From assembly GCA_029974275.1 (NCBI GenBank), contig JARKSN010000169.1, forward strand, positions 1 to 45,283: DNA of 45,283 nucleotides. Reading direction: 5' to 3'. The translations under genes were made by a program, and so were the position numbers. Numbering within the stretch: the stretch's first letter is position 1; every line of letters starts with the position of its first letter. Shown here one piece after another: positions 29,950 to 45,283 of this stretch. The notes beneath the pieces are model-generated. The model had not been told where the DNA came from. It was given only the letters and a program-made list of their open reading frames with translations, and made no database searches. Source of the DNA: Candidatus Hydrogenedentota bacterium. Lineage in GTDB: Bacteria; Hydrogenedentota; Hydrogenedentia; Hydrogenedentales; SLHB01.

Positions 29950-30300
29950 ATGGCCGCCCCCAATCCTCCAGAGCCCGTCAACCACGAATTCCCGGAGATG
30001 CAACTCGGGACAGGCGCCGCCCCGGCCGATCACCTTGTCCTTGAGGACATGAGCAAAGTGCGTCTCGGCATTACTGCATCCCTTGGCCATACCTCCATGC
30101 TCGTCCGCGATATCCTCGATTTGAAGATCGGTTCTGTCGTGCCGCTCGACAAACTCGCCGGCGAAATGACGGACATCTACCTCAACGATCTGCCACTGGC
30201 GCGGGGCGAGGTGGTGGTGATCGGCGATTCGCTTCACGTTCGCATCGGCGAAATCATCGGCGCCGCCGAGAAAATGGAGGAAGATGAAGAAGAAGCATAG
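29950..30300 (+). CDS. fliN: Flagellar motor switch protein FliN (SpoA domain)
   Basis: LG.T.M.VRDILDL..GSVV.LDKLAGE...ARGEVVV...VRI.EI. Confidence 0.92.
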   Translation: MAAPNPPEPVNHEFPEMQLGTGAAPADHLVLEDMSKVRLGITASLGHTSMLVRDILDLKIGSVVPLDKLAGEMTDIYLNDLPLARGEVVVIGDSLHVRIGEIIGAAEKMEEDEEEA

Positions 30301-41104: not shown

Positions 41105-41455
41105 TTGTGTCAAGCACCTGCCCGTGATGCAATTTTGATGCACTTCCCTGCAACACACTCCCCTCGTGGGTGGATTTCTTTGATTCCGGGATTCTGCTTC
41201 TCACTCCCAAAAAGACGGAACAAAACCCACAAAATGCCGCCCCATTTTGCCGCAATTGCATCATATGTGCATTATTTCCGTGATGCACTTCGGTAACATA
41301 TTGTTAATTAATGTGTTATGGCGCAATTCAAGGTGATTGTTACTCACCTGTTGACATTAGTTGCCGTTTCTGGTAGCTTTGAGAAGGACGCATATGTGTG
41401 GGTTCCATCCCAAAGTACCGGAACAAAATCCACAAAACTCCCGGAGGCTCGCGGC

Positions 41456-42577
41456 ATGGCAACGATACTCAACCGGAAGGACAAGAGCGGCAAGGTTCAC
41501 CACGCCGTGCAAATTCGCATGAAAGGGCATGCGCCTGCGTTCGCGTCTTTCGAGCGATTGACGGACGCGCGCAAGTGGGCCGTGCAAACGGAAGCCGCTA
41601 TCCGGGAAGGCCGCTACTTCACAACGTCGGAGTCCCAGAAGCACACGTTGGGTGAAGCCATTGACCGCTACGTCCGCGACGTGTTGCCGCACAAGAAGCC
41701 CAGTAGCATCTACTCGCAGACGATACAATTGACGTGGTGGAAAGAACGCCTGGGATGCTTTGTGCTTGCCGACATAACGCCGCCCGTCATTGCGGAGTCC
41801 CGCGACGCCCTGCTAAACGGCGAGACGCACCTCCATGCGAAACGCTCAAATTCTACTGTCGTTCGTTACATGGCCGTCCTCTCGCATTTGTTCACCGTGG
41901 CCATGAAGGAGTGGGGATGGGTGGACGATTCGCCCATGCGCCGCGTGTCGAAGCCCAAGGAACCACGGGGCCGCGTGCGTTTCTTGAGCGATGACGAACG
42001 CGCACGATTGTTGATCGCGTGCAAGGAATCCCGTTGCCCCTATCTCTACCCCGTCGTTGTGCTTGCCCTATCAACGGGTATGCGCAAGATGGAAATGCTC
42101 AGTCTCACGTGGGCCGATGTAGACCTGGGCCGGGCCGTGATCACGTTGCAGGAAACCAAGAACGGCGAACGCCGCGCCGTGCCGCTTGTGGGCCACGCCT
42201 TTGACCTACTGCAAGACCTCGCCAAGACACGCCGTATCGACACGCCTATGCTCTTCCCCGCGCCATTCCGTCACGGGTACGCGCCGAAACACTGCGACAT
42301 TCAATCCGCCTGGGATTGGGCCGTGAAACGAGCGGAACTCACGGATTTTCGCTTCCACGATCTGAGGCATTCCGCCGCGTCCTACTTGGCCATGAACGGG
42401 GCAAGTCTCGCGGAAATCGCCGAAGTCCTTGGGCACAAGACCTTGCAGATGGTGAAGCGGTATGCCCACCTATCCCATGCCCACACAAGCCGCGTTGTCG
42501 CGAGTATGAACGCCGCGATCTTCGCCAAGACAAAAGAAGCTCAATGCTCAGAGGAATCCACAGATGGAAGAAAGTGA
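41456..42577 (+). CDS. Site-specific tyrosine integrase (Rci/HP1-like)
   Basis: TGMR, TKNG, FRFHDLRH, LGH and RYAH catalytic residues; RBS ggagg before ATG 41456. Confidence 0.95.
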   Translation: MATILNRKDKSGKVHHAVQIRMKGHAPAFASFERLTDARKWAVQTEAAIREGRYFTTSESQKHTLGEAIDRYVRDVLPHKKPSSIYSQTIQLTWWKERLGCFVLADITPPVIAESRDALLNGETHLHAKRSNSTVVRYMAVLSHLFTVAMKEWGWVDDSPMRRVSKPKEPRGRVRFLSDDERARLLIACKESRCPYLYPVVVLALSTGMRKMEMLSLTWADVDLGRAVITLQETKNGERRAVPLVGHAFDLLQDLAKTRRIDTPMLFPAPFRHGYAPKHCDIQSAWDWAVKRAELTDFRFHDLRHSAASYLAMNGASLAEIAEVLGHKTLQMVKRYAHLSHAHTSRVVASMNAAIFAKTKEAQCSEESTDGRK

Positions 42578-43106
42578 AGAGAGCCAAGCGGGGAGGAGTG
42601 TCTGGCATGGTGTCGAATGGGTAGTGGGTAGCCCCCAAAACTCAATTGAAACTCTATGGGGTTACCTCAATGAATGGGAGAATCTGGCAAGACTCACGCT
42701 TGCAGAACCGCGTAGATGGGACTCCCATGATAATGCCTATTCCGTACTGGAAAGAGCGGAATGCCTGAGGACGTTTCTGCGAGAAGGCAATGTAGATATG
42801 AACATGGTTTGTGATGCGCTTTTCGACATGCATTTCTTGGCACGCTACGTCGATGCTCTAGAATCCACCGAGAGGATAGATGCGTTCGAAGGATGGTTCA
42901 AGATATACCGCGCTTGTAGAAAAGGGCATGCCCTAGTCCATGGAACACCGGAAGAAAAACAAGCACGTTTTGACGCCTATCGTGCGGCATTCGCCGAAAT
43001 ACGTACCAAGCATCCCCACCAGTCAAAAGAATGGTGCTACGCTAAAGTAGCCGAGCCATTCAACGTGTCGTCGAAAACCATCAAGCGCCACGTCTCGCAA
43101 AAATAG
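42564..43106 (+). CDS. Hypothetical protein with C-terminal helix-turn-helix
   Basis: Overlaps the integrase stop; C-terminus KEWCYAKVAEPFNVSSKTIKRH has HTH spacing. Confidence 0.65.
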   Translation: MEESEESQAGRSVWHGVEWVVGSPQNSIETLWGYLNEWENLARLTLAEPRRWDSHDNAYSVLERAECLRTFLREGNVDMNMVCDALFDMHFLARYVDALESTERIDAFEGWFKIYRACRKGHALVHGTPEEKQARFDAYRAAFAEIRTKHPHQSKEWCYAKVAEPFNVSSKTIKRHVSQK

Positions 43107-43209
43107 TTGGGACACTGCACTCCACTGTCCCAGTACCTACTGTGCTTTAATCCCGTTACCGGCACCGAAACACTGGGTTTTGTGCCGTAACGCAGGGAGA
43201 AAGCACCGG

Positions 43210-43353
43210 ATGTCTGATTTCGACCTTCCCCAAGAATGTGTCTTCCTGTCAGCTTCTCAACCTATTGACAGACCCCGGTACATTTCCCCAACGTACAAGA
43301 CGAACAAGGAAACTGCCGTATCGGACGGCAAGAGAAAGGAAGACAAAACATGA
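43210..43353 (+). CDS. Small 47-aa ORF below the ORF-track cutoff
   Basis: RBS-like gggaga, ATG 43210, MSDFDLPQECVFLSASQPIDRPRYISPTYKTNKETAVSDGKRKEDKT; its stop overlaps the next start (ATGA). Confidence 0.35.
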   Translation: MSDFDLPQECVFLSASQPIDRPRYISPTYKTNKETAVSDGKRKEDKT

Positions 43354-43574
43354 ACACGAACAGTAACGAGAACAGCAATCCGCGCCTTATCCCCTTGACC
43401 GATTGGCCGAATCACCACGCGTGGCCACCGATGGGAGGTCTTCGGCATTTGGTGTTCCACGCCAAAAGTAACGGCTTTGACGCCGTAATCCGTCGTGTGG
43501 GCCGCCGAATCTTGATCGATGAAGCTGCCTTTTTCCTGTGGATTGCCCGGCAGAATGAAGGGGCTCTGCGATGA
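43350..43574 (+). CDS. Small excisionase/AlpA-like DNA-binding protein
   Basis: 74 aa, WPP.GGLRHLVF....NGF..VIRRVGRRILIDE..FF.W winged-helix Xis-like pattern; near the integrase. Confidence 0.75.
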   Translation: MNTNSNENSNPRLIPLTDWPNHHAWPPMGGLRHLVFHAKSNGFDAVIRRVGRRILIDEAAFFLWIARQNEGALR

Positions 43575-43643
43575 AGCCCATCTCTTTCTCTCCGCGCTTT
43601 GACGCCGCCACAATCAAGGCCGCGATACAGCCTGTGGTTTTCT
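43571..43643 (+). pseudogene. 5' fragment of an island gene interrupted by the IS
   Basis: ATGA-coupled to the Xis-like gene; MKPISFSPRFDAATIKAAIQPVVF runs into the IS end at 43644. Confidence 0.5.
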
Positions 43644-43668
43644 TGTCCCGGTGCAGCGGGAATTGGAC
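43644..43668. repeat. IS terminal inverted repeat, right end
   Basis: tgtcccggtgcagcgggaattggac. Confidence 0.88.
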
Positions 43669-43767
43669 ACTCGCCGATTTTTCTAAGCGACTATCGTCAG
43701 TCGTAGTCGCCGGTTCAATTGCGCGTTTTTTGAGGCATAAGCGGTCTATCAATCCGATGTGCGCGTG

Positions 43768-43885
43768 AAGAGGAGTGGGGCGTCAATTGTGCACCCCACT
43801 CTATGGCGCATCGTTTTGATGAGCCGCATCAGGCTATCCCTTGACCGGGTGCTCGCCAGCAGAGCCGGCCTCCGTTTCACCCGGT
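43768..43885 (-). ncRNA. Candidate IS-encoded small structured RNA
   Basis: Promoter-like TTGCGT-17-CAAACT upstream, three hairpins, GC-rich terminal stem; see findings. Confidence 0.4.
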
Positions 43886-43889
43886 GACG

Positions 43890-44909
43890 TCAGTTTGCCA
43901 TAGCAGCCTGTAATACGCAAGCAGTTTGTGCGTAGGGCGCCGACGCCTCCTTTCTTGCAGCCTGGCGCCGCTCTTTTCGCTCGGCGCGGGCCGCTTCGAG
44001 TTTGCGGTCGCGCTCGGCAAAAATCGCCTGGTCGCGGCCTTCGAGTTTGTCTTTGGGCGTCACGAATCCGATGGCGCTGTGCAGCCGGACCTCGTTGTAA
44101 CGCGCGACGTAGCGACCCACGACGCGCCGGGCGTCGTCGAGCGACAGCGGCGTTTGCGGGCGGATGCATTCGGTCTTCAGCGACTTGTGCCAGCGCTCGA
44201 TCTTGCCGTTGCTCTGCGGGTAATACGGGGACGTCCGGACATGGGTCATGCCGCTGATGCGGATGTACTCCTTGAAGTCCTTGGCGATGAACTGCGGGCC
44301 GTTGTCGGAGATGATGCGGGGACGCGCCTGCGGGAACGCTTCCTTGGCACGCTCCAGGATGATCTCGATGTCGGCCTCGGTCATGGCCTCGCGGATATCC
44401 CAATGGACGATGAACCGGCTGCAGCCGTCCAACACGCTGCACAGGTAGTAAAAAGTCCCGCAAATGTTGATGTACGAGACGTCGACGTGCCAGTGTTCGT
44501 GCGGCGACAACGGCTGGATGAAGCCCGTACCCTTCCTGGACTCCTTGCCGTTCCAGGGATTCAATAGACCCGCGTCGCGCAACACCCGCCACACGCTCGT
44601 CGGTCCCACGGCCACCACGTCCGCGTCCAGCATCATGAACGTCAGGCGCCGGTAGCCCTCGTCCGGATGTTCCAGGTAATAGGCGATGATCGTCTGCTTC
44701 TCCCAGTCCTCGAGCCAGAAGTCACGGGGAATCTTGCCGTTGTGCTCGTTCACCTTGCCGTACCGGGCATGCCAGTTGTAGAACTTGCTCCGGCCGATGC
44801 CCAGCCAGCCGATAAACCGCCCCACGGCGATCGCCGTCTTTTCCGACCAGCCGTTCACGAAATCCATGATCGCGTCTCGCACGTCGTGTGCCACCCAGGT
44901 CCCGTTCAA
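43890..44909 (-). CDS. IS3-family transposase OrfB (DDE integrase core)
   Basis: GYRR, WHVDVSYI (D), ISDNGPQF (D), SNGKIERWH (E), YNEVRLHSAIG..TP. Confidence 0.95.
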   Translation of the reverse strand: MNGTWVAHDVRDAIMDFVNGWSEKTAIAVGRFIGWLGIGRSKFYNWHARYGKVNEHNGKIPRDFWLEDWEKQTIIAYYLEHPDEGYRRLTFMMLDADVVAVGPTSVWRVLRDAGLLNPWNGKESRKGTGFIQPLSPHEHWHVDVSYINICGTFYYLCSVLDGCSRFIVHWDIREAMTEADIEIILERAKEAFPQARPRIISDNGPQFIAKDFKEYIRISGMTHVRTSPYYPQSNGKIERWHKSLKTECIRPQTPLSLDDARRVVGRYVARYNEVRLHSAIGFVTPKDKLEGRDQAIFAERDRKLEAARAERKERRQAARKEASAPYAQTACVLQAAMAN

Positions 44910-45214
44910 GGCTCCCCAAGACTTTTTTTTAGCGCAACGTGTTCCTCCATCAGCTCCGCCAACACCTCGTCTTTGCGGTGCAGCTTCGACTCCAAAAACG
45001 CGATCCGCTGCTCCTGCGCCGACGACTGCGGCCGCCCAGGACGGTCAAAGGCCGCCGTCCCGTTCTCGAAGAATATCTGCTGCCACCTGTAGAACTGCGT
45101 CGGCTGAATCCCCGCATCCTCGCACACCTGCGACACGGGAATCTTCTCCACCAGGTGCCGCCGCAACACCCTGACCTTCTCCGCTGATGTCCAATGCTTC
45201 CGCTGCTTTTCCAT
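44906..45214 (-). CDS. IS3-family transposase OrfA (HTH)
   Basis: RKHWTSAEK...VSQVCEDAGIQPTQFYRW HTH, C-terminal zipper, ends LKKSLGEP; RBS gaggagg. Confidence 0.93.
   Translation of the reverse strand: MEKQRKHWTSAEKVRVLRRHLVEKIPVSQVCEDAGIQPTQFYRWQQIFFENGTAAFDRPGRPQSSAQEQRIAFLESKLHRKDEVLAELMEEHVALKKSLGEP
44923..44930 (-). other. Programmed -1 frameshift site (A8) fusing OrfA and OrfB
   Basis: Minus strand cta aaa aaa agt; a -1 slip reads on as aag tct tgg gga gcc ttg aac, in frame with OrfB. Confidence 0.85.
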
Positions 45215-45258
45215 GACTCCTCCTCAATGATGGTCTACACATTCTTGCCATCGGAGAA

Positions 45259-45283
45259 GTCCAATTCCAGCGCGGGCGGGACA
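45259..45283. repeat. IS terminal inverted repeat, left end; coincides with the window end
   Basis: gtccaattccagcgcgggcgggaca; reverse complement tgtcccgcccgcgctggaattggac. Confidence 0.88.

Follow-up and report, generated by a model that had tools for sequence, protein, structure and literature searches.

IS10 RNA-OUT and other antisense RNAs of insertion sequences (ISs) are small, stable, IS-encoded RNAs that are transcribed from a promoter of their own near the element end. The twister, pistol, hatchet and ROOL/GOLLD RNAs have a compact core and a variable periphery, and are patchily distributed and associated with mobile elements. HEARO and RAGATH-18 are motifs of the omega RNA (reRNA) type, which were long orphans before their function was found (PMC11061315). 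The bridge RNA of IS110 is described in PMC11208160 as a structured non-coding RNA of about 150-180 nt located in a non-coding IS end, with a sigma70-type promoter and stem-loops with internal loops, and in the IS110 group it is encoded in the left end. Here we describe a structured RNA of about 160 nt from the extended right end of an IS3-family element, which lies on the minus strand of a 45,283-nt stretch of DNA from a Candidatus Hydrogenedentota bacterium (contig JARKSN010000169.1, positions 1 to 45,283, of GenBank assembly GCA_029974275.1; this whole stretch is termed the window). A preliminary description of the window had proposed that a DDE-type IS carries a discrete, structured and promoter-driven RNA in this end, i.e., in the tail that follows the transposase gene orfB, and this proposal is supported by the presence of the RNA in 35 of 80 OrfB relatives from several phyla, by covariation and by a fixed distance to the -10 promoter element. 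That the tail contains a real, conserved structured-RNA gene is considered very probable.

The RNA, on the minus strand, begins with the first base of helix P1 and closes with an A run (43726..43885), as delineated by homology, covariation and a fold with a z score of -4.5 compared to shuffled sequences; it had been taken to be about 120 nt long, which falls short of its end at 43726. Its 5' portion, domain 1 (58 nt, 43828..43885), consists of P1 (7 bp, 43885-43879 / 43834-43828), an internal loop of family consensus YGAAACGGA (GAAACGGA in the window, 43878-43871), P2 (6 bp, 43870-43865 / 43848-43843), a CUC bulge, the P3 hairpin of consensus UGCN-GGNN-NGCA (43861-43858 / 43853-43850, with loop GGCG in the window) and an internal loop of consensus RAGGGAUA (AAGGGAUA, 43842-43835). 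Domain 2 (43739..43827), as derived from family folds and the minimum-energy structure of the window copy, is a long hairpin (P4a-c) that is capped by a variable hairpin, P5 (43801-43773), the latter being the terminal hairpin already noted in the preliminary description. The RNA closes with a conserved single-stranded 3' tail, AUGCCUC plus A6 (43726..43738), of consensus AUGCCUYNAAAA, which is nearly invariant across contexts.

Covariation, named in advance as a check on the RNA, was assessed on 139 distinct domain-1 sequences; these and a set of 128 full-length RNAs, like the other family counts given below, were drawn from the matches listed. On the structure above, 90.7% of cells were paired compared to 21-44% when the partners were slid by 1-3 columns. 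Double changes were found at 13 of the 17 pairs of domain 1, and double-change cells numbered 348 vs 116 in shuffles, with 0 of 500 shuffles reaching the observed value. The fourth pair of P3 was U-A in 53 sequences, G-C in 44, A-U in 35 and C-G in 6. The search pattern left P1, P2 and this fourth P3 pair free; the two internal loops were found to be nearly invariant among the 139 sequences, some of the loop and P3 positions being invariant in the metagenome set because they were fixed by the pattern. A covariance model of domain 1 matched the window copy with 70.9 bits (E 2.4e-17). Of 121 sequences, 112 were found to fold domain 2 into a single long hairpin (mean z -4.65), as does the minimum-energy structure of the window copy; at least four unrelated sequence versions share its architecture, with little variation within the commonest version. 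When parts of the window were folded and compared to shuffles, the minus strand gave z -3.7 for 43768-43885 (0 of 200 shuffles as good) and the value of -4.5 for 43726-43885, vs only -1.9 for the plus strand.

The pairings first drawn for this region were modified by the family alignment. The perfect 8-bp stem ACCGGGUG/CACCCGGU is present in the window and in its minimum-energy fold, but is specific to this copy, the 5' arm of the relatives being paired with CCYGGY about 50 nt downstream, past the RAGGGAUA loop. The mutually exclusive 'switch' pairings are confined to this copy as well, their segments forming long-range helices in the family, and the local hairpin GGCUCAUC/GAUGCGCC is likewise replaced in the family fold by two long-range helices. 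Two further candidates, a pseudoknot of AUGCCU with AGGGAU and a pairing of the P3 loop with the 3' tail, were set aside, as both partners are invariant and the rare variants do not agree in favouring or opposing them. The RNA also has a short form (81-85 nt), composed of domain 1 and a AUGCCUUGAAAA tail with no domain 2 (loci L155, L148, L084, L091, L192, L207 and L174; numbers with L are our handles for loci).

Transcription of the RNA is predicted from a promoter at 43892..43920 on the minus strand, assigned by reading of the sequence and by family register, with a -35 element TTGCGT (43920-43915), a 17-nt spacer, TG at 43900-43899 and a -10 element CAAACT (43897-43892), the last T of which is the T of the orfB stop codon. 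The motifs and coordinates of this promoter, including its overlap with the end of orfB, stand as first described. Among 125 non-identical upstream regions, a -10 element TAnAAT was found at -12 to -7 from the first P1 base (frequencies T.73, A.83, n, A.70, A.57 and T.78), with G (.77) at -14, and in many of these a TTGACA-like hexamer lies 17 nt upstream of the -10. The TTGCGT-17-TGgCAAACT arrangement of the window is exactly in the -10 register of the family, and its two closest relatives have the same variant. This family-wide register supports the +1 previously predicted at about 43885, which is the first base of P1. In domain 1, G.U pairs outnumber A.C pairs (173 vs 84), and this excess together with the promoter indicates that the RNA is on the transposase strand. 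The TGGCAA-type extended -10 is common to the RNA promoter (TATGGCAAACT, 43892-43900, minus) and to a stretch upstream of orfA (GATGGCAAGAAT, 45241-45250, minus), a likeness that had been pointed out earlier. In most IS3 relatives, though not in the window, a GC hairpin CCCGCCC-GAA-GGGCGG is located directly past the A run (tail alignment columns 213-255); read on the opposite strand, this hairpin and a U run resemble an intrinsic terminator that would act on transcription coming into the IS from its surroundings.

Conservation of the tail was examined in relatives of OrfB, of which the best 80 of 586 confirmed stretches were used. The whole 240-nt tail was found by nhmmer in about 35 of these 80, so the 3'-end conservation anticipated by the preliminary description is borne out, and the domain-1 covariance model detected 35 of the 80 at E <= 4e-13 and one more at 2e-5, all on the transposase strand. 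The carriers include Acidobacteriota, Thermodesulfobacteriota, Planctomycetota, Nitrospirota, Myxococcota, Verrucomicrobiota and others. In nine relatives only 9-40 nt follow the orfB stop before a right terminal inverted repeat (IRR) homologous to that of the window is reached. Since these short-tailed relatives pass from the stop straight to the homologous IRR, the tail corresponds to an insertion of about 220 bp between stop and IRR. In an OrfB tree, which was a quick tree and not a careful search, the short-tailed elements form one supported clade and the RNA-bearing elements are spread over the rest. Domain 1 is near-identical where OrfB identity is 65-75%. The RNA module is conserved more tightly and evolves more slowly than the transposases that carry it, and is older than much of the IS3 clade of the window. 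Several acidobacterial relatives have 600-1200 bp of passenger DNA after orfB and ahead of the tail, which still adjoins the IRR.

Passenger DNA of 600-1400 bp between orfB and the RNA tail was observed at L013 (2460-3865), L071, L076, L083, L084, L086 and L038, and likewise in metagenome loci L092, L101, L103, L111, L145, L163 and L164. Among the products of the passenger genes are an S-adenosylmethionine (SAM) methyltransferase-like protein, a GNAT acetyltransferase, ParE, a sigma-70 factor and an F420H2-dependent quinone reductase, and the insertion is in every case immediately upstream of the RNA promoter. The genome of the window has a second, diverged tail copy (contig C239, about 30090-30170; L007:1275-1543, minus), with an insertion of about 40 nt inside P2, and was missed by the domain-1 model at E <= 1. 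The pattern search of this genome gave only these two copies because the IS is collapsed in the assembly.

The RNA is not the IS3 element's 'own', as had been supposed, since the same family occurs in ISL3, IS110, IS21 and another IS3 clade. With a pattern drawn from the tail alignment, at least 119 further loci were found in metagenome contigs, and in only 26 of the 119 listed was an OrfB of the window clade located upstream. A Pfam census of the largest neighbouring open reading frames (ORFs; 78 from 39 loci upstream, and 50 downstream) identified IS110 in 5 loci, ISL3 in 6, IS21 istA/istB in 8 and another IS3 clade in at least 3, as well as one IS30-like gene, one AAA_22 / Mu-transposase pair, two group II intron reverse transcriptases and assorted ordinary genes. 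The RNA was found inside ISL3 elements with both inverted repeats identified (L105, L146), inside a 397-bp element with ISL3-type inverted repeats that resembles a miniature inverted-repeat transposable element (MITE; L179), and inside elements of the IS110 family, one of which is carried by plasmid pACPOL3 of the cultured bacterium Acidisarcina polymorpha SBC82. In the IS110-family carriers, homology among four copies stops 40 nt beyond the RNA, and the left end still measures 238 nt. The RNA is also inside a 1657-bp IS3-family element with inverted repeats of about 90 bp and at least six copies in one long-read genome, where it faces inward and is convergent with orfB. With IS21, the RNA adjoins or is inside the element, and in L128 it lies antisense between istA and istB; at loci that we term type B it is convergent with IS21, IS3 and IS110 genes. 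One locus (L157, oriented, about 2090-2190) has, within an ISL3 element, a truncated IS3-type tail that comprises the RNA, the GC hairpin and one half of the IS3 IRR and is succeeded by a terminal repeat of ISL3 type, a structure which shows directly that the RNA module moved between IS families. Thus, one RNA family is common to unrelated transposase families, in either orientation and at several positions. An arrangement in which the RNA always faces outward at an element end, considered at one stage, is ruled out by the inward-facing and convergent copies.

The type-B copies have an extra conserved block 70-110 nt upstream of the RNA start (TTTGGACA ... TTCCTTAGCTACAC; L150, L168, L117, L110, L203 and L188), which may belong to the module or to an element end. 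An element end at TGACCGGCAAC, about 58 nt upstream of the RNA, was considered and rejected because homology runs on to at least -110; accordingly, type-B RNAs are placed inside the neighbouring IS21, IS3 or IS110 only for the 1657-bp element and are described elsewhere as adjoining or inside. Genes for group II intron reverse transcriptase/maturase were observed 0.1-1.2 kb from the RNA (L136:135-1877 and L092:2-835). Long-read genomes were found to contain 10, 7, 0, 15 and 4 copies of the RNA, many of them identical. Within the phylum of the window, 14 of 135 genomes contain the pattern, frequently close to a contig end, compared to 0 for a reversed-pattern control; one match was found in a viral contig collection and one in 72,556 plasmid records, and the pattern was not found in 5,426 Escherichia coli genomes. 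Degenerate copies were noted at L141, L162 and L113.

Could the conserved tail be something other than RNA, i.e., DNA bound by transposase, a plain terminator or a small ORF? The tail adjoins the IRR, short ORFs overlap the region in the window, and the GC hairpin and A run of most IS3 relatives are intrinsic-terminator-like on the opposite strand. Against these stand the compensatory changes that keep the pairing, the excess of G.U over A.C, the promoter at a fixed distance and the occurrence with unrelated transposases. A small ORF was rejected, as no frame is open in more than 57 of the 128 sequences and their lengths are spread evenly over the three classes modulo 3. A mere terminator, the explanation that the preliminary description had set against its own, does not account for the tail either, in which the RNA strand has no terminator-like site and conserved parts extend beyond the hairpin. 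Overall, an identity other than RNA is judged very improbable. Still more remote is a guide RNA of the bridge-RNA or omega-RNA kind that would choose target or donor ends, an option raised at the outset as a targeting RNA. The non-coding IS end, the two domains with internal loops and the placement in the right end of IS110-family elements would suit such a guide, but the pattern of a conserved scaffold with variable loops matching the targets, named earlier as a check, was not observed: the loops stay invariant even where the ends and targets of the elements differ. The flanks of 22 delimited IS3 relatives are unrelated, with a 4-bp direct repeat in 10 of the 22 and a left boundary that is a few bases off in seven. 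For each RNA, the longest match to its own flanks was 7.47 nt compared to 7.01 +/- 1.02 nt for mismatched pairs (19 elements). The carriers are mostly DDE transposases, and no TnpB or IscB gene was detected by Pfam next to the RNA in the window element. In addition, the IS110 carriers retain the 238-nt left end, which according to PMC11208160 is the site of the IS110-group bridge RNAs. On these grounds the guide was rejected.

A self-cleaving or self-processing RNA, in which the loops and 3' tail would form a catalytic core, perhaps with an AGGGAU-AUGCCU pseudoknot, and the cut would define the RNA end, is unlikely. Its small conserved core has an optional or variable peripheral hairpin (the short forms lack domain 2), its strand has no terminator, and it occurs in mobile DNA in either orientation, as do several bacterial ribozyme classes; AUGCCU could pair with AGGGAU at 5 of 6 positions, and the variant AUUCCU (L105, L146) would turn a G.G into U.G. 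Yet no match to a ribozyme model of Rfam was obtained even at E <= 10, a dedicated promoter with its +1 at P1 is not a requirement of known ribozymes, the pseudoknot has no real covariation and would be broken by the loop variants of L091 and L201, and no cleavage site can be named. Improbable, too, is a cis-acting promoter and leader that would drive transcription out of the IS end, to flanking genes or across a circle or tandem junction into the transposase, with the structured 5' part protecting or antiterminating the transcript. In the window clade, in IS110 elements and at one IS21 locus (L142), the RNA follows the transposase gene and is directed toward the nearby end, an RNA-library contig crosses the IS end into a different flank, a terminator is lacking on this strand as well, and the carrier families IS3, IS21, IS110, ISL3 and IS30 form circular or tandem junction intermediates. 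This account is contradicted by the inward-facing RNA of the fully delimited IS3-family element, which is convergent with orfB, by the convergent type-B loci, by ISL3, in which the RNA is at the upstream end and points away from the transposase gene, and by the antisense RNA between istA and istB of L128; nor would a promoter and leader alone explain the near-invariant internal loops. We find it quite improbable that the module is a selfish hitchhiker that spreads among ISs by nested insertion or recombination without helping them. Such a hitchhiker would be in keeping with the patchy occurrence (14 of 135 genomes of the phylum), the many unrelated elements and differing positions, the capture of an IS3-type tail with half an IRR in the ISL3 end of L157 and the degenerate copies, but not with an RNA core more conserved than the carrier transposases, a place that is kept across most of the OrfB tree even where passenger genes are inserted, and a module devoid of mobility machinery of its own. 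Decidedly improbable is an orientation-independent action on a circular intermediate, e.g., by a structured transcript or R-loop that would prime or stabilise the circle or alter its topology. Only families that use circular or tandem intermediates appear among about 25 listed contexts outside the IS3 clade, the function seems indifferent to orientation, and the transcript end is conserved and A-rich with no terminator; this idea is, however, purely inferential and drawn from a small sample of families, RNA-less sister elements transpose, and the MITE-like form fits any model.

The reading that we favour, to which we would assign about even chances, is that of a self-contained, trans-acting accessory RNA that presents its invariant loops and tail to a common partner. 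The sigma70-type promoter overlapping the end of orfB would start transcription at about 43885, the first base of P1, and the product would be made as a discrete RNA of two domains and about 160 nt (43885 to 43726). It would work as a folded molecule in trans, its constant core of loops and tail binding a partner that is identical in all hosts (a host protein, a host RNA or a small ligand), with domain 2 as a structural spacer. In this capacity, the RNA may be an accessory that raises the persistence or spread of its carrier elements and not the cofactor of one transposase. Action as a folded RNA in trans is proposed because orientation, position and transposase family appear to be indifferent while the loops and 3' tail are nearly invariant. 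A bolder version, in which the RNA would be a family-independent cofactor exchanged among unrelated transposons with circular or tandem intermediates, acting on the intermediate or on a conserved host system that restrains them, or else representing a new ribozyme class, is a long shot; if true, it would be the first RNA to serve DDE and DEDD transposon families alike as a 'common good', as opposed to a guide tied to one enzyme.

A number of observations weigh against the accessory RNA as drawn here. The window copy has a C.A mismatch at one P1 pair and a substitution at a nearly invariant A, and its domain 1 is less stable in the consensus fold (-18.4 kcal/mol) than in a copy-specific alternative (-25.3 kcal/mol). 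The promoter, sound in its motifs and register, is weak in the window (hexamers with 3/6 and 3/6 of the consensus, plus TG), and a strict promoter scan reported none at the RNA start. For domain 2, the sense fold has a lower energy than the antisense fold in no more than 71 of 121 sequences, and the strand can thus not be assigned from folding energy alone. No terminator-like site was found on the minus strand within 43644-43890, and the 3' end of the RNA is undefined because its own strand has no intrinsic terminator downstream. RNA-less sister elements nevertheless occur in multiple copies (L017/L018), and in one genome that contains IS3 relatives the number of RNA copies is zero; thus, the RNA is dispensable for transposition. 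Full element boundaries together with an inward-facing RNA are available for one element only, the 1657-bp IS3-family element, and the term 'trans-acting' rests on orientation independence. With respect to expression, in a comparison with four runs, contigs from the metatranscriptome libraries of three studies cover the tail at a depth of 3-14 with no DNA control, and DNA carry-over is possible. Under the same limits of depth and control, one contig of 203 nt is identical to 43673-43875, two contigs, which stem from two studies, stop at 43874/43875 with no loose ends, and one extends from the tail past the IS end into a different flank. These contigs are a weak hint that the RNA is transcribed rather than a demonstrated transcript.

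The carrier of the RNA in the window is an IS of 1640 bp (43644..45283, minus) with a 246-nt tail, in agreement with the size and the stretch of about 245 bp past the orfB stop reported earlier. Its boundaries were set by the terminal inverted repeats, by contigs of the same genome that end in IS ends and by homology of the IRR to that of relatives. An inverted-repeat search placed the left repeat (IRL) at 45259..45283 and the IRR at 43644..43668 (both minus); these repeats are 25 nt long and 76% complementary, start with TGTCCCG and finish with CGGGACA, and thereby fit the TG...CA ends of the IS3 family. From the ORF list and Pfam, orfA (44906..45214, minus, 102 aa) encodes HTH_Tnp_1 and orfB (43890..44909, minus, 339 aa) the rve integrase core, rve_3 and HTH_21. 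The two genes overlap by 4 nt, and their order, a helix-turn-helix domain in orfA and then the rve DDE core in orfB, is that of IS3-family elements, as are the 4-bp target duplications found in IS relatives (3-4 bp in the family). The orfB stop codon TGA is at 43892-43890, from which the tail runs to the IS end. A hairpin, GCGACUA...UAGUCGC (43687..43710, minus), identified by hairpin search and alignment of relatives, separates the RNA from the IRR. The right end up to exactly 43644 is present on a second contig of the same genome, and the contig edge coincides with the IS left end. As other contigs of the assembly stop in the same IS ends, the IS is taken to be multi-copy and collapsed in the assembly; the target duplication of the window IS itself is not visible, as the contig does not extend past the IS. 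A 419-aa tyrosine recombinase is encoded about 1 kb from the right end of the IS (41318-42577, plus; Pfam Phage_integrase, E 2e-30), followed by small ORFs with no Pfam match, and the IS may be at the edge of an integrated element.

The RNA has been transferred among at least four transposase families and a MITE-like element, and it is found in many phyla from soil, sediment and wastewater; its absence from the E. coli genomes and near-absence from the plasmid and viral collections may explain why it escaped notice. Since it is short, has a defined start and is present in at least one cultured bacterium, it is directly testable. Full-text searching of the literature found no description of the tail RNA, although an earlier one elsewhere is possible. 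When the window (43000-45283) was compared to Rfam 15 at E <= 10, two chance-level matches elsewhere and none in the tail were obtained, and twenty further loci gave ten sub-threshold matches to ten different families, none of them recurring. Likenesses to CRISPR repeats, SRP RNA and rRNA segments that were noticed by eye were given no weight.

When compared to the known systems, the tail RNA resembles IS10 RNA-OUT as a small IS-encoded RNA with its own promoter near the element end. Unlike RNA-OUT, it does not overlap a transposase translation start, being downstream of orfB in the window and at various positions elsewhere; it occurs in unrelated IS families whose mRNAs share no sequence, and its conservation is in loops and helices instead of an antisense stretch. 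The likeness to twister, pistol, hatchet and ROOL/GOLLD is of general character only (compact core, optional peripheral helices, patchy occurrence and association with mobile elements), the tail RNA differing in its lack of an Rfam 15 match, in its dedicated promoter and in being tied to ISs and not to phages, with a single viral match. With the omega RNAs of IS200/IS605/IS607 TnpB and of IscB it shares a conserved RNA scaffold on the 3' side of a transposon, but it has no adjacent TnpB or IscB and no Rfam match. It ends 40-85 nt inside the element (in the window at 43726, 82 nt inside the end at 43644) and not at the boundary, and thus has no flank-derived guide. The bridge RNA (seekRNA) of IS110/IS1111 is similar in size, in its location in a non-coding IS end, in its sigma70-type promoter and in its stem-loops with internal loops (PMC11208160). 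The tail RNA differs from it in loops that are invariant and not programmable, with no complementarity to targets or ends; in a carrier that, in the window, encodes HTH_Tnp_1 and rve rather than a DEDD recombinase, most carriers being of the DDE type (IS3, ISL3 and IS21) and some of the IS110 family; in insertion sites that are diverse rather than sequence-specific; and in its position in the right end of the IS110-family carriers, beside their long left end. We rate the tail RNA as a new RNA class with a new kind of association with insertion sequences, and, as it is not guide-like, it may point to a transposon-host interaction of a kind not yet described.

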